A DNA stretch of 56,440 nucleotides, taken from NCBI GenBank assembly GCA_964499775.1, contig CAZCMK010000001.1, positions 22,243-78,682 on the forward strand, read 5' to 3'. Below are positions 9,331-31,532 of this stretch, piece after piece (position 1 is the stretch's first letter; each line of letters begins with the position of its first letter). The notes under the pieces are model-generated. The model had not been told where the DNA came from and ran no database searches. It was given only the letters and a program-made list of their open reading frames with translations. The position numbers were made by a program, and so were the translations under genes. Source of the stretch: an uncultured Dehalococcoidales bacterium (lineage in GTDB: Bacteria; Chloroflexota; Dehalococcoidia; Dehalococcoidales; UBA2162).

Positions 9331-10806
9331 ATGGAACACTTCGAATCGTTGTTCAATCCCGAGAGCGTTGCCGTGGTCGGAGCGTCCAATGCCATGCACA
9401 AATGGGGCGCCGGCGTCTTCAGCAGTGTTTTAAGGACTTCCAAGGTGAAAAGAATATACCCGGTCAACAAAAATACCCCGGAGGTACAGGGAGTTAAGAC
9501 CTACCCTTCCGTAAGGGATTTACCCGAGCCGGTCGACTTCGTAGCGATAGTAATCCCTTATGATTCCGTGCTCGATGTGGTGCGGGACTGCGTTGCCAGA
9601 GGCGCCAAATCCGCTCTCATCATTACCGCCGGGCTGGGCGAGACGGGTCCGGAAGGAGCAAAGCTTCAGGAAGAGATTGTCCGGACGGCGCGTGAAGGCG
9701 GACTGCGACTCGTCGGACCGAACTGCATGGGACATTTCAATGCGGCGAACGACTTTTCCACCGTGCGGATGGGATTGTCCATGGACAAGGGTGAAATAGG
9801 AGTTATCTCGGAAAGCGGCGGTTTTGCCGGACATATTCTCCAGTGCGGCACCGAGATGGGCGTGGGTTTCAGCAAATTCGTCAGTACCGGCAATGAAGCC
9901 GACCTGCACTTCGAGGACTTCTTCGAGTACTACGCACAGGACGATGATACCCGTGTGATTACAGCCTATATAGAAGGTTTGAGGGAAGGTAAGCGTTTCT
10001 TCAAAATAGCTAAAGAGATAACCAGAGACAAGCCGGTGGTAGTGGTAAAGGTGGGCAAGACTGAGGCAGGTGTGAGAGCGGCAAAATCCCACACCAGCGC
10101 CATCGCCGGCTCCGACCTGGTCTACGATGCCATGTTCAAGCAGGCGGGGGTGATAAGAGTCGAGGAGGTCGAGGAGCTTTTCGACGTCGCTTCGGGACTG
10201 CTCCACATGCCGATACCGAAGAGCAACAGGGTCGGCATCCTGACCTTCGGCGGCGGCTTCGGCTGCGTTACCGCCGACGCCTGCGAAAAGCTGGGGCTGG
10301 AGGTAGCCCCGCTTTCGCCCCATACCATCGAGCGTCTGAATGAAGTCCTGCCGGAACGCTGGCCTCACGCCAACCCGGTGGATATGGTAGGTTTCGGGGA
10401 GGTCACATATCCCTGCCTCTGGCCGTTGATAGAAGATGATAATATAGACTCCGTGATTGTAATAGGCGGAATCGGCCAGATGGGAATGATGAGGCGCATG
10501 GCGAGGATGAGACAGGAATCATTCGACGAGGCGGACGCGCCTCCTCCCTTCATGGAGCAGGATGAAGAGACCATCAAAGCCAGAGAAGAGGAAGAAAGAA
10601 AGAACCTGGATAAGTTATTCGAATATATGAAAAAATACCGGAAGCCGGTTATTACATTTAACCGCCATGCCGCCGATATGAAGGACGCGCCCGTGTTTAA
10701 CGAGCTTAAACAGAATGGCGTTATGATGTACCCCACGCCGGAGAGAGCCGCCAGGGTGCTGGCCCATCTGGTGGAGTATGGCAGGTACCTTAATTCCTGG
10801 CTATAA
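9331..10806 (+). CDS. acetate/acyl-CoA ligase (ADP-forming) alpha-type subunit, CoA-binding
   Basis: 491 aa. CoA-binding N-terminus SVAVVGASN, GPNCMG, and phosphohistidine-type segment KSHTSAIAG. No ATP-grasp partner is adjacent. Confidence 0.75.
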   Translation: MEHFESLFNPESVAVVGASNAMHKWGAGVFSSVLRTSKVKRIYPVNKNTPEVQGVKTYPSVRDLPEPVDFVAIVIPYDSVLDVVRDCVARGAKSALIITAGLGETGPEGAKLQEEIVRTAREGGLRLVGPNCMGHFNAANDFSTVRMGLSMDKGEIGVISESGGFAGHILQCGTEMGVGFSKFVSTGNEADLHFEDFFEYYAQDDDTRVITAYIEGLREGKRFFKIAKEITRDKPVVVVKVGKTEAGVRAAKSHTSAIAGSDLVYDAMFKQAGVIRVEEVEELFDVASGLLHMPIPKSNRVGILTFGGGFGCVTADACEKLGLEVAPLSPHTIERLNEVLPERWPHANPVDMVGFGEVTYPCLWPLIEDDNIDSVIVIGGIGQMGMMRRMARMRQESFDEADAPPPFMEQDEETIKAREEEERKNLDKLFEYMKKYRKPVITFNRHAADMKDAPVFNELKQNGVMMYPTPERAARVLAHLVEYGRYLNSWL

Positions 10807-11663
10807 TGGAGGGAATTATGCCAGTATCAAGCGATAGTTCAATGAGAAAAGCACTGCCGGTGGAAGAACTGGAGAAAGTGGCAAAGAAGCTCCGCCGCCA
10901 CATAATCATAATGACGGGCAAGGCTGGCAGCGGTCACCCCGGAGGGTCGCTATCCGCCACGGATATAGTGACCACAATCTATTTCAACCTGCTGCGCCAT
11001 AACCCCGCCGACCCCGACTGGCCCGACAGAGACAGGTTTATCCTCAGCAAGGGTCACGCCGCTCCCGTGCTCTACGCCGCCCTGGCTGAAAGCGGCTACT
11101 TCCCTTTAGAGGAGCTGCCCACTCTGCGAAAACTTGGAAGCAGTCTTCAGGGACATGCCGACAGCAACGTAACCCCGGGAGTGGAGATGACCGCCGGCTC
11201 GCTGGGACAGGGGCTGTCCTTCTCAGTAGGCGTAGCTATCGCCGGTCGGCTCAACTCGAAGGACTACCGGGTATACGTATTGCTGGGTGACGGCGAGTGC
11301 GACGAAGGGCAGGTGTGGGAAGCGGCTATGGCCGCCGCCCATTTCAAGGTGGACAACCTGACGGCTATCGTGGACAACAACGGACTGCAAATCGACGGGT
11401 GGAATAAAGACGTAATGAGCCTCGAGCCTTTGAATGAAAAATGGAAGTCTTTCGGCTGGCACGTTATAGAAGTCGACGGTCACAATATCAATCAGCTTCT
11501 GGACGCTTTCAAAGAAGCAGAATTCGTTAAAGGTCAGCCAACCGTTATCATCGCCCACACCGTTAAAGGCAAGGGCGTCAGCTTCATGGAGAATAATGTC
11601 GATTTCCACGGCAAAGCCCCCGACGCCGAGCAGGTGGAACTGGCACTGAAGGAGCTGGAGTAA
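10806..11663 (+). CDS. transketolase, N-terminal (TPP-binding) subunit
   Basis: 285 aa. Contains GSGHPGGSLS and GDGECDEGQVWEA. An alternative ATG at 10818 has a better-placed GGAGGG. Confidence 0.9.
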   Translation: MEGIMPVSSDSSMRKALPVEELEKVAKKLRRHIIIMTGKAGSGHPGGSLSATDIVTTIYFNLLRHNPADPDWPDRDRFILSKGHAAPVLYAALAESGYFPLEELPTLRKLGSSLQGHADSNVTPGVEMTAGSLGQGLSFSVGVAIAGRLNSKDYRVYVLLGDGECDEGQVWEAAMAAAHFKVDNLTAIVDNNGLQIDGWNKDVMSLEPLNEKWKSFGWHVIEVDGHNINQLLDAFKEAEFVKGQPTVIIAHTVKGKGVSFMENNVDFHGKAPDAEQVELALKELE

Positions 11664-11664
11664 A

Positions 11665-12606
11665 ATGGCTGAAGAAGTTGCAATGAGGGAAGTTTACGGC
11701 AAGACTCTGGTTGAGCTGGGCAGAGAAAACCCGGATATCGTGGTGCTGGATGCCGACCTCTCGGCATCGACCATGACCAAGTACTTCGCCAAAGAGTTTC
11801 CGGAGCGTTTCTTCGACTGCGGCATTGCCGAGCAGAATATGGTGACTATCGCCGCCGGTCTGGCATCTGCGGGTAAAATACCTTTCGCCAGCACCTTTGC
11901 GGTTTTCGTGCCGGGTCGCTGCTTCGACCAGGTCCGCGTGTCCATAGCCCATTCCGAACTCAACGTGAAGCTGGTAGTAACCCACGGCGGTCTAAGCGTC
12001 GGTGAGGACGGCGCCACTCACCAGGCTATTGAAGACCTTTCTCTGATAACCTCGCTCCCCGGCTTTACGGTAATAGTGCCGGGTGACGGCATCGAGACAG
12101 CACAGGCAGTGAGGACGGCAGCCTCCGTCCAGGGACCCTTCTATATCCGGCTTCCCCGCCTCAAGACGCCGATAATCTATACCGACGACTACAAATTCGA
12201 GATAGGCAAAGCGGTCGAACTGAGACCGGGTAAGGACGTTACCGTAATCGCCATCGGGATTATGGTGGCTGCGGCACTTGAAGCCGCTGAAAACCTGTAT
12301 AAAGAAGGCATAGACTGTCGCGTGGTGAACATGCCAACGATTAAACCAATCGATGAAGCGGCTATCGCCAGGGCGGCGGAGGAGACCGGGGCTATAGTTA
12401 CCGCCGAGGAGCACCTGGAGCACGGCGGACTGGCGAGCGCCGTAGCCCAAGTGGCGGCTAAAAACCATCCGGCGCCCATGGAGTTCGTCGCCGTCAAGGA
12501 TACCTATGCTGAGTCCGGCACCCCCGCCGAGCTTCTGAAAAAATACGGTCTGACGGCTGATGATATAGAACAGGCTGTTAAAAAGGTGCTGAAAAGGAAA
12601 AAATAA
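11665..12606 (+). CDS. transketolase, C-terminal (pyrimidine-binding) subunit
   Basis: 313 aa. Contains DCGIAEQNMV and THGGLSVGEDGATHQ. Confidence 0.9.
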   Translation: MAEEVAMREVYGKTLVELGRENPDIVVLDADLSASTMTKYFAKEFPERFFDCGIAEQNMVTIAAGLASAGKIPFASTFAVFVPGRCFDQVRVSIAHSELNVKLVVTHGGLSVGEDGATHQAIEDLSLITSLPGFTVIVPGDGIETAQAVRTAASVQGPFYIRLPRLKTPIIYTDDYKFEIGKAVELRPGKDVTVIAIGIMVAAALEAAENLYKEGIDCRVVNMPTIKPIDEAAIARAAEETGAIVTAEEHLEHGGLASAVAQVAAKNHPAPMEFVAVKDTYAESGTPAELLKKYGLTADDIEQAVKKVLKRKK

Positions 12607-12625
12607 TAAAGCGGAGTATTGAATT

Positions 12626-13099
12626 ATGGCGTTAAAATTATCGCCTCAAGAAGCTAGAGACCTTGCCGGGAAACTGATGGCAGAGGGTAATCACTGAGGG
12701 CCGAGTGTCCTGCAAGTTATGTGGGAAGCCAACGGAAAAGGCGATGACAGTATGCTCTGGGCAGGCACCAACTTCTTCGGCGGGATAGCCGGTCATCAGG
12801 ACGGTGTGTGCGGCGCCGTATCGGCAATAGGGGTATATCTGGGACTCCGCTACCGCTGCAATTCCGAAGATAAAGAGCAGGTCGACCGGGCAATAGGAGA
12901 AGCGCGGCAGAAGACAGGCGAGGTTGTGCAGGCATTCAAAGATAAATTCGGCAGCATTATCTGCAGGGAACTCGTGGGGGTGGACTTTTCCGACCCCGAA
13001 GCGGTGAGGCATTTCTTCGAAGATAGTGAAAACAGGAATAAATGTCCCGGGTTTGTACAGTTCGCCGTGGAGAAGCTCTGCGAGCTGGATAGTGAGTGA
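12626..13099 (+). CDS. C_GCAxxG_C_C family redox protein with in-frame TGA (12695-12697) at the first conserved Cys position; candidate selenoprotein
   Basis: ATG 12626 is in frame with the track ORF 12719-13099, separated only by one TGA. Read-through gives ...AEGNH-U-GPSVLQVMWEANG (family consensus ..NCAQSVL..), followed by GVCGAVSAIG, IICRELVG and NKCPGFV. There is no SD before the ATG at 12719. Confidence 0.65.
12699..12730 (+). promoter_or_regulatory. putative bacterial SECIS hairpin
   Basis: Ten nt after the TGA there is a 7-bp stem UCCUGCA/UGUGGGA (2 G-U pairs) with apical loop AGUUA containing GU (12708-12726). A lower GGC/GCC helix sits at 12699-12701/12728-12730. Confidence 0.45.
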
Positions 13100-13109
13100 A
13101 AGTAAGTAA

Positions 13110-13130
13110 AAGTGGGACGAAGTCCCACTT
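13110..13130. terminator. perfect 9-bp hairpin AAGTGGGAC-GAA-GTCCCACTT between convergent genes
   Basis: Seen directly. No T-tract follows on the plus strand. On the minus strand it is followed by a moderately T-rich TTACTTACTTT. It resembles the hairpin at 27867. Confidence 0.35.
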
Positions 13131-13165
13131 CGAGACTTTCAGATATCACAGGAACCTATATTTTC

Positions 13166-13245
13166 CTGTCATTCCCGCCCGCCGCGGCGGGCGGGAATCC
13201 ATTAATGCCGCACGTCTGGATTCCGTGTCAAGCACGGAATGACAG
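13166..13245. repeat. nested palindromic element (family B)
   Basis: Outer inverted repeat CTGTCATTCC/GGAATGACAG. Inner hairpins ATTCCCGCCCGCCGCGGCGGGCGGGAAT and ATTCCGTG-TCAAG-CACGGAAT. Confidence 0.7.
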
Positions 13246-13293
13246 TCTTTAGATAGTATCTTTAAATAATCTCCATGCTGATTTTTCTCGGTA

Positions 13294-14262
13294 TTACAAT
13301 CTTATCTCTTTTTCCAACCAGTCGATGTGCTCGTGTTTTCTCCTCCAGAAAACGTCTTCCCAGATATAGTTGAACGCCAGTTTCTCCCACCCCTCGAATT
13401 TCCGGAAGAAGGCGAGTATTTTATCCGTATTAACCAGCTCTTCGTTGAAAACCAGCCTCGATATAATCTTCTGCTCCCACGGAGGAACCGTTTCCAGCTT
13501 ATCGTAAAAATAAAAGCCTTCGAAAAGCAGGTAATCCACCGATGCCGGCCCGATGCCGTACAGCTTGAGCATCTCGGCCCTTATTTCGTCTCTGCCCATT
13601 TTTCTCAGGTCGAACTCATCGATTTCACCGTTTACGAACTGCCCGGTGATTCTCTCGAGGAATTTTGCGCGGTATCCCAGCTTCAGGTCTCTCAGTTCCT
13701 GCTCGGAGGCTTCCGCCATCTTCTCCGGTGCCCAGAATGCCGAGAGGGTTTGTCCGTCGAACTCCAGCCTGTTACCGAACTTCTCAAACAGGTTCTCCAT
13801 CATCTGGACGGTACGCCTGACGGTAGCATTCTGGAGGACTATGTATATAATCAGTGTTTCATAAAGAGAGTCGGCAGACCGCGGCTTCATTCCTTTCCAT
13901 TTCCGGATGAAGGGGCCAAGGACTTCGTCATCGTGGTATTTTTCGTAGAACCCGGATATATCGGAATCGAAGTTGTACCTCCACCTGAGTTCCGGGACCA
14001 GGCCTTCCAGATAGTCTTTCGTTAAAGCTTCCCGGGAGTAGATGCTGATTTCTATTTCCGGTCTGTCCGTTGTCCCTCTGTCCTCGAACTTGAGTCCGAG
14101 TTCCCGCCCTCTCCAGAGCATGGTTATCCAGAATCTGCCCTCTTCCCAGTCACCATCCGAGGATGGAAAATATGACGGCTTGTGGAAATTGGCATCAAAA
14201 TTATAGGGAGCGCGGGGCTTGAGGGAGACGGTCTCTTTATGGTTCAGCTTTATTGGCGGCAT
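13294..14262 (-). CDS. HhH-GPD superfamily DNA glycosylase (AlkA-like)
   Basis: 322 aa. Helix-hairpin-helix LKLYGIGPASVDYLL, with an Asp about 16 residues after GIG as in AlkA. Confidence 0.55.
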   Translation of the reverse strand: MPPIKLNHKETVSLKPRAPYNFDANFHKPSYFPSSDGDWEEGRFWITMLWRGRELGLKFEDRGTTDRPEIEISIYSREALTKDYLEGLVPELRWRYNFDSDISGFYEKYHDDEVLGPFIRKWKGMKPRSADSLYETLIIYIVLQNATVRRTVQMMENLFEKFGNRLEFDGQTLSAFWAPEKMAEASEQELRDLKLGYRAKFLERITGQFVNGEIDEFDLRKMGRDEIRAEMLKLYGIGPASVDYLLFEGFYFYDKLETVPPWEQKIISRLVFNEELVNTDKILAFFRKFEGWEKLAFNYIWEDVFWRRKHEHIDWLEKEIRL

Positions 14263-14293
14263 TGAATCACCCGTTTAGGTTATCGGTCTGGAG

Positions 14294-14378
14294 TGGTGCC
14301 GGGGGTGGGACTCGAACCCACAAGGATTGCTCCGGCGGATTTTAAGTCCGCTGCGTCTGCCGATTCCGCCACCCCGGC
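14294..14378 (-). tRNA. tRNA-Leu (anticodon UAA)
   Basis: The reverse complement GCCGGGGTGGCGGAATCGGCAGACGCAGCGGACTTAAAATCCGCCGGAGCAATCCTTGTGGGTTCGAGTCCCACCCCCGGCACCA folds as a cloverleaf with a long variable arm, anticodon loop CTTAAAA and an encoded CCA. Confidence 0.9.
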
Positions 14379-19873: not shown

Positions 19874-20800
19874 TTAATATCCGGTGAGATACCGTTGCGC
19901 ATATATTGCGGCGGTTGCACCGTCGCCGGCGGCGGTGATAGCCTGCCGGGCGGAGTCTCCCCTTATATCACCGGCGGCGAATATTCCCGGAACTTCCATC
20001 TCCATTCTTTCATTGGTGATGACATGCCCAACCGGGTCCAGAGTTACGATGCCTTTAAGGTATTCGGTATCCGGCTGAAAACCGATGGATACGAAAACTC
20101 CGCCTATCTCCAGGGTCGATTTCTCTCCCGTTTTCACGTTATTGAGCTTCAGACTCTTCACCAGGGTATCACCTTCCATCGAATCGACGGTGGTATCCCA
20201 CAGGATTTCTATTTTAGGTTCGGCGAACGCTCTCTCCTGCAGGATAGCAGTGGCTCGAAGCTGGTCGCGCCGGTGTATCACCACCACTTTCGAGGCAAAC
20301 TCAGCCAGGTGCAGGGCTTCAGTAATGGCGGCGTCGCTGCCGCCGACCACCGCTACAGGTTTGTCCGCAAAGAGCGGGGCATCGCAGGTGGCACAGTAAG
20401 ATACGCCCTTACCGGTAAACTCTTCTTCTCCGGGAACGCCCAGTGAATTACACTTCGAGCCGCCGGCTATAATCACCGCTTTAGCTTTGAAATCTCCCTC
20501 GGTGGTCTTTACAGCTTTAATATTGCCCTCAAGCTCGATACCGGTAGCCTCGGCGGTCAGCGTTTCCAGTCCGAACTTAGTCGCCTGCTGGTGGATTAGC
20601 TGCCCGAGTTCGAAGCCGTCGATGCCTTCCGTAAAACCGGGGAAGTTTTCTATAAGGTCGGTGTTGTTTATCTGCCCGCCGGGCAGCCCTTTTTACAGGA
20701 GTAAGGTGCTAAGCCTTGCCCTTGCCGTGTAAAGTCCCGCGGTGAGCCCGGCGGTGCCTCCTCCGATGATAATTACGTCGTAATCATTCCTGTCTGTCAC
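19874..20800 (-). pseudogene. trxB: thioredoxin-disulfide reductase interrupted by an in-frame TAA at codon 36
   Basis: A continuous frame runs from GTG 20800: [38 protein letters not shown](20693-20695)-KGLPGGQINNTDLIENFPGF...CATCDA... to the stop at 19874. Orthologues normally have Glu (GAA) at that position. The track shows only the 3-prime 200 codons. Confidence 0.8.
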
Positions 20801-27931: not shown

Positions 27932-29404
27932 ATGAAGAGCGATTTTCTGCTCGCTATAACACAAATCTCGGCTGAGAAGAACCTGCCCAGCGAAGTAGTC
28001 CTATCCACGGTTGAGGCAGCCCTGGTATCAGCCTACAGGAAGGATAATTTTTACCCCAACCAGGAGCTTTCGGTAAAGATTAATCCTACCAGCGGCAAGA
28101 TACAGGTCTGGGCGGAAAAAACCGTTGTGGAAAACCCGTCTGACTTTGTATGCGAGATATCACTGGAAGAAGCACGCAAGATAAATACGGACGTGGAGTT
28201 AGATGAGACCGTTATGGTAGAAGCTACTCCCAGTAATGCCGGGCGTATTGCCGCTCAGACAGCGAAGCAGGTTATCCTTCAGCGTCTTCATGAAGCAGAA
28301 CACAGCGCCATATTCGAGGAGTACGCCGGCAGAGAGGGTGAAATCGTCACCGGAATGGTACAGCGTATCGAGCCGAGGCAGATACTGGTGGACCTGGGCA
28401 GAACCGAGGCGATATTGCCTTCCGCCGAACAGGTACCCGGTGAAAGATACCGGATAGGGCAGAGACTCAAGGCAAGCATCCTGGAGGTAGTCCGAACCAA
28501 TAAGGGGCCCCGGGTAATACTTACGCGTTCGCATCCCGATTTACTGCGACGACTCTTCGAGATGGAAATCCCGGAGATTTTCAACGGGACCGTTGTCCTG
28601 GAATCGATTGCCCGTGAAGCCGGGTACAGGAGTAAAATCGCCGTATCGGCACGCCAGGAGGGTATCGACCCGGTAGGCTGCTGCGTGGGATTGCGGGGCA
28701 TCAGAATTCAAAACATAGTTAATGAACTGAACGGTGAAAAAATAGACGTTGTCGTCTGGCACAAAGACCTGGCGGCCTTTATCGCCAATGCTCTCAGTCC
28801 CGCCCAGACATCGAACGTTACACTCGATGAGAGGGAAGGCGTAGCCAACGTGGTCGTCCCCGACAGGCAGCTATCATTGGCTATCGGTAAAGAAGGGCAG
28901 AACGTCAGACTTGCCGCTAAACTCACCGGGTGGCGGATAGATATTAAAAGCGCTTCAGAAGCCGAGGCGGAAAAAGCGGAGATGGAGGAAGCTCAGGTTC
29001 CTGCCGAAGCTAAAGAAGAAGCCGAACCGGAACCCGAGGCAGCAGAGGAAGAAGTCGTAATAGATGAACGAATCCTGGAGGAAATCCCAGATATACTCGA
29101 GCCGGTCCTCGATGCCGAAGAGAAGGAAGAAGTAGAAGAGGAGGAAGAGGAAGGCGAGCCGATGCCGGCTCTCGATGGTGAACTGGTTGTTTCCGCTGCT
29201 TCTTTCGAACAAGCAGCGCCGGAAAAACCTTCGCTACGGTTTGCCGAAGATATCATGGTATCGGCACCGATCAAGGCAAGCACAAAGACCAAAAAGAAGA
29301 AAAAGAAAGGTTCTCAGGATAAAGACAGCGAGGAAGGCCAAGGCAGAGGCAGGAAAGCGCAGCATAAGATAGACTTAACCGATTATGAAGATGACGAGTA
29401 CTAG
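27932..29404 (+). CDS. nusA: transcription termination/antitermination factor NusA with an acidic/lysine-rich C-terminal tail
   Basis: 490 aa. NusA N-terminal domain, S1 and two KH domains ([50 protein letters not shown]), then a low-complexity E/K tail. Confidence 0.95.
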
Positions 29405-29690: not shown

Positions 29691-31532
29691 TTGGCAGAGG
29701 TAAGCAAGCAGGAAAAGGTATCGAAATCATCGGCTAAAGAGGCAGGTTCTTCTTCAACGAAAGCCCGAAAGCTCGAGATACCGGACAGCTTAAGCGTAAA
29801 ACAGCTAGCCGACCTTTTAGAGGTCAGCGCCGTGGAAGTCATCAAACAACTGATGAGGAACGGCATCATGGCCAACATCAACCAGGCTGTTGATTACGAA
29901 GCTGCCTCTGCAATTGTGTCCAATTTCGGTTTCGAGGCTACCTTGAAATCCCGGCCCGGTCGGAAATCGTCCAGCGTTATCAGAGAGATAAAGAACCAGC
30001 AACTCCTGCAGGACAAGGACCACAGCGGGTTAAAACCACGCCCTGCGGTAATTACCGTCATGGGCCATGTCGACCACGGAAAGACCAGGCTGCTGGATGC
30101 CATCCGGAAGACCAACGTGATGGACTCCGAAGCCGGAGGCATTACCCAGCATATAGGCGCCTATCAGGTGGAAATCGAAGGACAAAAAATCACATTCCTG
30201 GATACTCCGGGGCATGAAGCCTTCACAGCGATGCGTGCGCGGGGAGCCCAGGTAACAGATATTACAATACTGGTGGTGGCTGCCGATGACGGAATAATGC
30301 CGCAGACCCTCGAAGCGATAGACCATGCCAGAGCGGCAGGAGTACCAATAGTCGTGGCAATCAATAAAATTGACAAAGACGAGGCAAATCCGGAGCTCGT
30401 TAAACAGCAGCTTGCCGACGCCGGACTGGTTATCGAAGAGTGGGGAGGCGACACTATCAGTGTTCTCATTTCCGCCAAGGAAAGGACGGGTATCCAGGAC
30501 CTTCTCGAGAACCTGTTGATTGTAGCTGAGATGGAGGAGCTGAAGGCAGACCCCTCCAAACCGGCGGTTGGCGTGATTATAGAGTCAGAAATGGACAAGA
30601 CAAAAGGAGCGGTTGCCACCGTGCTGGTACATGATGGAACACTGAAGGTCGGCGATACGGTAGTCGTCGGTAATACCTGGGGCAGAATAAAGGCTATGTT
30701 CAATGACGTGGGTAAACAGGTTAGAAAAGCCGGCCCTGCCGTCCCCGTGGAAATACTGGGTTTAAGCGCCGTCTCACAGGTAGGCGATACTCTGACTGCC
30801 GTCTCCAGCGAAAAACAGGCAAAAGACCAGGTTGCGAAAAACCAGGCAAAAATCCAGGAGGAGACAGTAGCGGCGATAAAATCGGTCAGCCTAAGCAATC
30901 TCTTCGACCAGGTAAGTACCGGAAAGGTGAAAGAACTTGCCGTTGTCCTCAAGACCGACGTACAGGGCAGCATCGAGCCGATAAAGAGTTCTCTAGAGCA
31001 ACTGGGAACGGATGAAGTCAAGGTCAGGGTAATACACAGCAGCAGCGGTAATGTTACCGAGAGTGACGTTATGCTGGCTATCGCATCAAAAGGAATAATC
31101 ATCGGTTTTAGTACCACCTCCGAGCCGGGCGCCCAGCGGTTAGCCGAGCTCGAGGGCGTGAATATCCGTTATTATGATGTTATCTATAACCTTCAGGAGG
31201 ATGTGAGTAAGGCTCTTACAGGTATGCTTGAACCTTCGCTGGTAGAGGTTATCTCCGGCCGGGCGGAAGTCCGGGCGGTCTTTACCAGCGGGAAGAAAGA
31301 CAGGATTGCCGGTGTTTATGTTGTAGAAGGACAGATACGCCGGGGAGATTCCGTGAGGGTGATACGGCAGGAAGAAACCATTAACGAGACCGTCGTCGCC
31401 AGTCTGAGACGCTTCAAAGACGATGTCAGGGAGGTAGCCGCCGGTTACGAATGCGGATTAGGTCTCAGAGATTTCGATGATTTTGAGGCTGGAGATAGGC
31501 TGGAGTTCTTCAGAATCGAGGAGGTGAGGTAG
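29691..31532 (+). CDS. infB: translation initiation factor IF-2
   Basis: 613 aa. G-domain [18 protein letters not shown] and NKID motifs. TTG start immediately after the ylxR stop. Confidence 0.95.

Follow-up and report, generated by a model that had tools for sequence, protein, structure and literature searches.

Sec-containing members of the C_GCAxxG_C_C family were first reported as a "putative redox protein" of the Olavius algarvensis delta-1 symbiont, and their SECIS element was presented in Fig. 5B of that work (Zhang & Gladyshev 2007, PMC1976440). Sec forms of the family have also been listed in two reviews (PMC9312934, PMC13188914). The second of these describes a "form 1", a "form 2", and a HUGP/GUXX-star fusion (NF041212, 2 Sec), with the fusion credited to Haft & Tolstoy 2025, mSystems. 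The same knowledge is reflected in the names of the NCBIfam models: TIGR01909 is the "C-GCAxxG-C-C family (seleno)protein", and NF045501 is the "HUGP/GUXX-star fusion selenoprotein". As for the lineage considered here, Dehalococcoidia MAGs with 46-49 predicted selenoprotein genes have been described (PMC13326102).

The gene discussed below comes from an uncultured Dehalococcoidales bacterium and lies in the window, i.e., the whole stretch of 56,440 nucleotides that was analysed. The frame 12626-13099 is very probably a real selenoprotein gene, and its first 31 codons would be missing from the gene call because the selenocysteine UGA was taken for a stop. Its start codon, ATG 12626-12628, is placed 19 nt past the transketolase stop and 9 nt past a GGAG, at the position where the orthologs have purine-rich stretches. 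From this ATG, the frame is open to its end except for its sole interruption, TGA 12695-12697. The product obtained by reading through is MALKLSPQEARDLAGKLMAEGNH-U-GPSVLQVMWEANG..., and the peptide that spans the UGA is LMAEGNH-U-GPSVLQVMWEANGK. This arrangement had been proposed in the initial annotation, and its coordinates for the ATG, the GGAG, the TGA, and the frame running to 13099 all proved correct when the sequence was read again.

What do gene callers report instead? As had been pointed out from the start, the ORF track truncates the gene: it begins at ATG 12719, which is in the same frame as ATG 12626 and is codon 32 of it. The public gene calls for the window protein and its orthologs have the same truncation, with lengths of 115-134 aa. 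For instance, the public 115-aa call of the window protein starts at ATG 12752, and the selenoprotein has been missed in the GenBank records of the orthologs MBN2240405.1 and UCD08118.1, too. The features of the locus are collected in Table 1.

Table 1. Positions of the features at and around the putative selenoprotein gene, numbered along the window.
Feature	Position	Strand	Remarks
End of the split-transketolase C-subunit ORF	TAA 12604-12606		Direct sequence reading
Shine-Dalgarno-like GGAG	12613..12616	+	9 nt before the start codon; direct sequence reading
Full CDS of the predicted 157-residue stand-alone HUGP-type C_GCAxxG_C_C selenoprotein	12626..13099	+	Stop TGA 13097-13099 included
In-frame TGA, proposed selenocysteine codon 24, His-Sec-Gly-Pro context	12695..12697	+	
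Bacterial SECIS-like hairpin	12704..12730	+	-8.3 kcal/mol; comparative support
Truncated ORF of the ORF track, 126 aa	12719..13099	+	ATG is codon 32, within the SECIS loop and 3' arm
Cys62 codon TGC in G-V-C-G-A-V-S (family GCAxxG signature)	12809..12811	+	Invariant in alignments A1, A3, A5
Cys113 codon TGC in I-I-C-R-E-L, third signature Cys	12962..12964	+	Invariant in alignments A1, A3, A5
Cys140 codon TGT in N-K-C-P-G-F-V, fourth signature Cys	13043..13045	+	Invariant in alignments A1, A3, A5
Perfect 9-10 bp hairpin just past the stop, terminator-like	13109..13131		Terminator scan scores the minus strand; inverted repeat I3

The gene belongs to a locus whose order recurs among relatives: an ADP-forming acyl-CoA synthetase-like gene, the N and C parts of a split transketolase, one or two HUGP genes, sometimes a HIT-family gene, and a tRNA-Leu(UAA). 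This order is found at 9331-14378 in the window and in the related loci L015, L017, L019, L022, and L023. Most relatives have two tandem HUGP paralogs; the window has one. A peculiarity concerns the second tandem paralog of L015 (9977-10040, CP070800.1) and of L016 (384-447), where a TAG replaces the Gln codon CAG in the 5' arm of the SECIS (GPTTV-stop-VMHK). The two assemblies that carry it are independent, and their upstream peptides differ by one residue. Either this TAG-bearing paralog is a pseudogene or, possibly, its expression starts only at the downstream AUG.

On its other side, the window gene ends with ...LDSE-TGA-AAG-TAA, followed by a strong hairpin. A second Sec at the terminal TGA (13097) was considered, since the resulting "UK-star" ending would be like GUXX-star; the idea was rejected because the ortholog tails are unrelated and end with TAA or TAG, and because the hairpin scores as a terminator. 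Taken as a set, the terminal stops of the orthologs vary (TAA, TAG, and TGA), so that the terminal TGA of the window gene is an ordinary stop.

The hairpin at 13109-13131 separates the putative selenoprotein gene from a convergent gene, 13294-14262. The 195-nt gap that follows the gene hosts a nested cluster of inverted repeats (13145-13245), with a perfect 28-nt GC-rich palindrome at 13171-13198 (ATTCCCGCCCGCCG/CGGCGGGCGGGAAT), which occurs once in the window, and a 10-nt inverted pair whose halves, 13166-13175 and 13236-13245, are 60 nt apart. The convergent ORF, 322 aa long and on the minus strand, has no Pfam match at E <= 1e-10; a helix-hairpin-helix-like stretch in its sequence (LKLYGIGPASVDYLLF) may recall the HhH-GPD DNA glycosylases.

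The search for other TGA-interrupted genes in the window gave no credible candidate besides 12626-13099. An interruption of another kind is present in a gene for a thioredoxin-reductase-like flavoprotein with a CATC motif (19874-20800, minus strand, GTG start at 20800). Here, an in-frame TAA (20695-20693) comes after ...ARLSTLLL, and the frame stays intact for ~270 codons beyond it. Relatives generally have a Glu at this point. Rather than a Sec codon, the TAA is the result of a recent nonsense mutation or of faulty assembly.

The argument for the selenoprotein starts from the conservation of the TGA. A protein search gave 38 close homologs, all of 115-134 aa and covering ~75-82% of the query, along with distant full-length Cys forms of 144-166 aa. 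Genome contigs, metagenome contigs, and exact look-ups supplied 22 distinct genes, a collection of orthologs and paralogs with several tandem pairs, mostly from Dehalococcoidales MAGs. The initial annotation had recommended looking in relatives for TGC, TGT, or TGA at codon 12695-12697, and the answer is uniform: at 42-78% identity, TGA occupies this codon in 22 of the 22 distinct genes, always within H-TGA-G-P, and TGC or TGT in none (0/22). Could the TGA nevertheless have arisen in a Cys gene by nonsense mutation or through faulty assembly, which would make the gene a pseudogene or an artefact? The assembly does contain such defects, as seen in the TAA of the trxB-like gene, but an identical TGA 12695-12697 is present in three independent assemblies obtained from different samples (L005, L006, and L007), which speaks against an error of sequencing. 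That TGA also occurs in another 21 distinct genes, flanked on either side by sequence under purifying selection, and the probability left to this explanation is close to nil.

A second point is whether translation crosses the UGA or begins after it. If the UGA terminates, the functional protein would come from the internal ATG 12719 (or 12752) and lack the first signature residue, and the 23 codons upstream would be a leader left untranslated or a short ORF of their own. This is the model given by every gene caller, the truncated ORF passes the Pfam threshold with 59.2 bits, and ATG 12719 is invariant in the orthologs. The upstream codons tell another story. In the set of 22 genes, the substitution rate over the last 20 codons ahead of the TGA depends on the codon position (0.42 at the first, 0.36 at the second, and 0.59 at the third), and the rates over the 60 nt farther upstream are flat, at 0.66-0.67. 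When the 22 x 23 upstream codons are scanned for stops, frame 0 has none, and the two alternative frames have 43 and 13. Besides, in 21 of the 22 genes the distance from an ATG to the TGA is exactly 23 codons, with a purine-rich, Shine-Dalgarno-like stretch preceding this ATG, and the upstream peptide aligns with the N-terminus of the Cys forms. By this comparative signature, the 23 upstream codons evolve as coding sequence, and on that account the internal start is ruled out as the source of the main product.

The invariance of ATG 12719 has its own explanation. The AUG at 12719-12721 is constant in the Sec-form genes, and the Cys forms have Tyr, His, or Phe at this position. It consists of the last base of the SECIS loop and the first two bases of the 3' arm, and it is invariant because it is part of these elements; this same invariance is the reason why ORF callers arrive so consistently at the truncated model. 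No Shine-Dalgarno-like purine run precedes ATG 12719. All in all, we hold an internal start to be very improbable, and we return to the read-through protein.

This protein fits its family over the entire length of the domain. With the TGA read as Cys, residues 23-153 align with positions 2-117 of the 118 of PF09719 (C_GCAxxG_C_C) and score 63.2 bits, whereas the truncated ORF reaches profile positions 22-117 only, with 59.2 bits (curated cutoff 27 bits). An alignment restricted to residue 32 and beyond would have pointed to a spurious N-terminal match, as the initial annotation had warned; the PF09719 match begins at residue 23. For TIGR01909, the score of 48.9 bits is above the cutoff of 47.4 bits. 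The best-scoring model is NCBIfam NF045501.1, with 195.6 bits and E = 8.9e-58, and residues 1-156 are colinear with positions 1-156 of the 236 in the profile. The truncated ORF scores 148.7 bits with this model, so that the N-terminal 31 residues add 47 bits. The NF045501 cutoff of 325 bits is not reached by the window protein because the C-terminal GUXX-star half is absent. His-Sec-Gly-Pro falls at residues 23-26, and the reading N-H-[TGA]-G-P in the window is a literal HUGP. From its sequence, the window protein is a stand-alone HUGP protein with a single predicted Sec.

Which residue of the family does the TGA replace? In eight full-length Cys forms, the TGA column corresponds to the invariant Cys of G-Y-N-C-[SA]-Q-S-V, and the suspicion that this is the first conserved Cys of the family is borne out by two alignments that agree, the one made by MAFFT with the full-length Cys forms and the one with PF09719. 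Two residues located upstream of the TGA, A14 and G21, are conserved in the Cys-form alignment, and C62, C113, and C140 are invariant throughout the alignment with the eight Cys forms. With the UGA read as Sec, all four C_GCAxxG_C_C signature positions are filled: U24, C62, C113, and C140.

As for the structure, a Cys-form member of the family is predicted with confidence to be an all-helical bundle (pLDDT 88.6). A fold search of the PDB with this Cys-form model gave no relative (best E 0.93), and a sequence search for a solved structure gave none. In small selenoproteins that are related, Sec may act in redox chemistry or as a ligand of metals (PMC13188914). Because of this statement, and because the Sec/Cys pair is conserved alongside three Cys, the most likely role of Sec24 and the three Cys would be that of a selenol/thiol redox centre or of a metal/metalloid-binding centre.

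The next element is the hairpin. A stem-loop with GU in its apical loop, ten nt past the TGA, had been noticed in the window alone; it is indeed there, at 12708-12726 (UCCUGCA-AGUUA-UGUGGGA), and it is kept in all 22 distinct genes. The stem is of 7 bp (12708-12714/12720-12726), and its universally conserved core is 12710-12714 paired with 12720-12724. In the apical loop, AGUUA 12715-12719, G12716 and U12717 are invariant; alignment A2, which is ungapped and made of 18 sequences (17 distinct), has G22, U23, and A25 as invariant loop positions. The lower part of the structure fared differently from what had been proposed: the lower GGC/GCC helix is not conserved, for column 6 of A2 is free to vary, and just 7 of 17 sequences have it paired with C35. 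An alternative lower extension, 12704-12706/12728-12730, is partly conserved, with weak pairing at 12705-12706/12728-12729.

In the core, pairing is retained in 17 of the 17 distinct sequences, through five pairs that are C-G in 13 and G-C in 4, U-G in 13 and U-A in 4, G-U in 11 and G-C in 6, C-G in 16 and U-G in 1, and A-U in 17. The swap from C-G to G-C is compensatory, and it can be followed at the level of the codons: Leu CUG becomes Val GUG, and this is matched by Trp UGG becoming His CAC. The covariation is probably, in essence, one evolutionary event, this Leu/Trp to Val/His change in the paralog-B clade. Paired cells amount to 82%, against 32-48% when the partners are slid; the covariation score of 0.213 was reached by 1 of 500 shuffles, and RNAalifold independently selects the same five core pairs.

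The hairpin lies within a conserved peptide, so synonymous sites were examined. Outside the stem, fourfold-degenerate third positions are near saturation (columns 6, 9, 36, and 42, H = 1.78-1.90 bits), whereas the two fourfold sites within it are frozen, with G in all 17 sequences at column 18 (H = 0) and C in 16 of the 17 at column 15 (H = 0.32 bits).

The published description of bSECIS elements (PMC13188914, legend to Fig. 2) asks for a loop of 3-9 nt, an upper stem of 4-16 bp, a G within the first two positions of the loop, a UGA-to-loop distance of 16-37 nt, and an MFE of -7.5 kcal/mol or lower. In the window hairpin, the loop has 5 nt and the stem 7 bp, G and U are at loop positions 2 and 3, the distance is 17 nt, and the energy is -8.3 kcal/mol. 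The SECIS check that had been called for thus came out in favour of the element, which agrees with the published model on all four counts and whose conservation is accompanied by covariation. As a control for chance, the 1614 TGAs of the window were inspected: a hairpin of at least 5 bp with an xGU loop occurs 9-14 nt after 14 of them (0.87%), and one of at least 7 bp after 4 (0.25%). The fold of the single sequence 12695-12760 is no better than that of shuffled ones (z = -0.70), so that the structural support is comparative. The Rfam scan of the window returned two tRNAs only, with no match at the hairpin.

The reading of the UGA as Sec calls for a dedicated machinery, and here the search moves beyond the gene. 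In the 56 kb window, selA, selB, selD, and tRNA-Sec were sought and none was found. Two ORFs that were candidates for SelA and SelB by size, 27932-29404 and 29691-31532, are NusA and IF-2, and the remaining large ORFs of the window are housekeeping genes. The complete 2.33 Mb Dehalococcoidales genome CP070800.1 (L015) does encode SelA and SelB, at a distance of 7-10 kb from its tandem HUGP genes. Both are in the region 1-3021 of L015, where SelB was identified by its Pfam SelB beta-barrel and winged-helix domains; no tRNA-Sec was found in the 20 kb of L015 that the search covered.

Perhaps, then, the UGA is read as a standard amino acid (Trp, Cys, or Gly), by near-cognate decoding or in an altered code. 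The 56 kb window, with no Sec machinery found in it, would suit this proposal. Other data speak against it: TGA ends 13 of the 58 long ORFs of the window, several of them overlapping the start of the next ORF, and, TGA being an ordinary stop in these, the genetic code is standard. Moreover, the conserved SECIS-type hairpin would be superfluous, the position is Cys in the homologs, as in a classical Sec/Cys pair, and a relative with the same gene encodes SelA and SelB. We rate this proposal as less probable still than the internal start, and selenocysteine is the reading kept in what follows.

Putting the pieces together, a route from gene to protein can be proposed. Translation would start at ATG 12626, and the ribosome would not terminate at UGA 12695-12697. 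The hairpin, by exposing G-U in its 5-nt apical loop 17 nt from the UGA, would recruit SelB carrying GTP and Sec-tRNA(Sec), and selenocysteine would be inserted as residue 24. For the window organism, both the binding of SelB to the hairpin and the insertion of Sec are what its sequence and that of its relatives suggest. The product would be a C_GCAxxG_C_C protein of 157 residues, probably all-helical, in which Sec24 would replace the first conserved Cys of the family and stand alongside Cys62, Cys113, and Cys140.

A further speculation goes one step beyond this scheme. The invariant AUG 12719 is specific to the Sec forms, embedded in the SECIS, and placed 7 codons after the UGA, and no Cys ortholog of the stand-alone HUGP clade was found above ~40% identity. 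It might be that this clade of Dehalococcoidales is obligately Sec-dependent, and that the gene gives the full selenoprotein when selenium is available and a truncated, Sec-less product, by termination and reinitiation, when it is not. We consider this very improbable; if true, the L015/L016 lineage, in which a UAG within the hairpin leaves no AUG to use but the one after it, would offer a natural case of truncated expression.

What does the gene add to the field? To begin with, this gene and at least 21 Dehalococcoidales relatives figure in public databases as proteins of 115-134 aa with their N-terminus cut off, and these records are without the residue that is predicted to be the one most likely catalytic. 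Once corrected, the annotation would enlarge by one the selenoproteome of a lineage whose wealth of selenoproteins is already on record, and it would offer a clean, comparatively supported example of a SECIS for Chloroflexota. It also indicates that the HUGP domain can stand alone, fixed beside the split transketolase genes, and it provides a small and tractable target for working out the role of the C_GCAxxG_C_C family. No concept of selenoprotein biology is changed by it.

Compared with known systems, the hairpin, when lined up on the UGA, is nearly a match to the apical hairpin of the E. coli fdhF SECIS, whose sequence was verified in 5419 E. coli genomes. The G-U bases of the SECIS loop contact SelB in E. 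coli and Moorella. The fdhF element is likewise located within the coding sequence, immediately 3' of the UGA, and it exposes G-U in the loop on top of an apical stem UGCA/UGCA. The register of the G-U from the UGA is +22/+23 in the window hairpin and +23/+24 in fdhF. However, the loop has 5 nt (NGUYA) in the window clade and 4 nt (GGUC) in fdhF, and the window hairpin differs further in that it has no evident bulged U and its lower stem is short and poorly conserved.

Among proteins, the Cys forms P0043 (Acetivibrio cellulolyticus) and P0050 (Gastranaerophilaceae) are of the same length class and have the four signature positions, at 25-37% identity. These Cys forms have N-C-[SA]-Q where the window clade has H-U-G-P, and the codons from which the hairpin of the window clade is made (Gln-Val-Met and Trp/His/Arg) are absent from them. 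The "form 1" and "form 2" selenoproteins are alike at the level of the PF09719/TIGR01909 family and in having an in-frame UGA followed by a bSECIS; the members described earlier are from Deltaproteobacteria and Firmicutes-type organisms, in contrast to the window clade, which belongs to Dehalococcoidales.

The closest described system is the HUGP/GUXX-star fusion (NF045501), with which the window protein shares the HUGP motif and the colinear profile positions 1-156. The fusion has, in addition, a C-terminal domain of ~80 residues with a second Sec (Gly-Sec-x-x-stop), which is absent from the window protein. Nor does this domain appear to be encoded apart: a separate GUXX-star ORF (G/C-TGA-x(1-4)-stop) was sought in the window and in all the related loci, and only out-of-frame junk was found. 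Sec forms of the family, with the same His-Sec-Gly-Pro motif, are already catalogued, and what the window gene adds to them is the stand-alone architecture with a single Sec.
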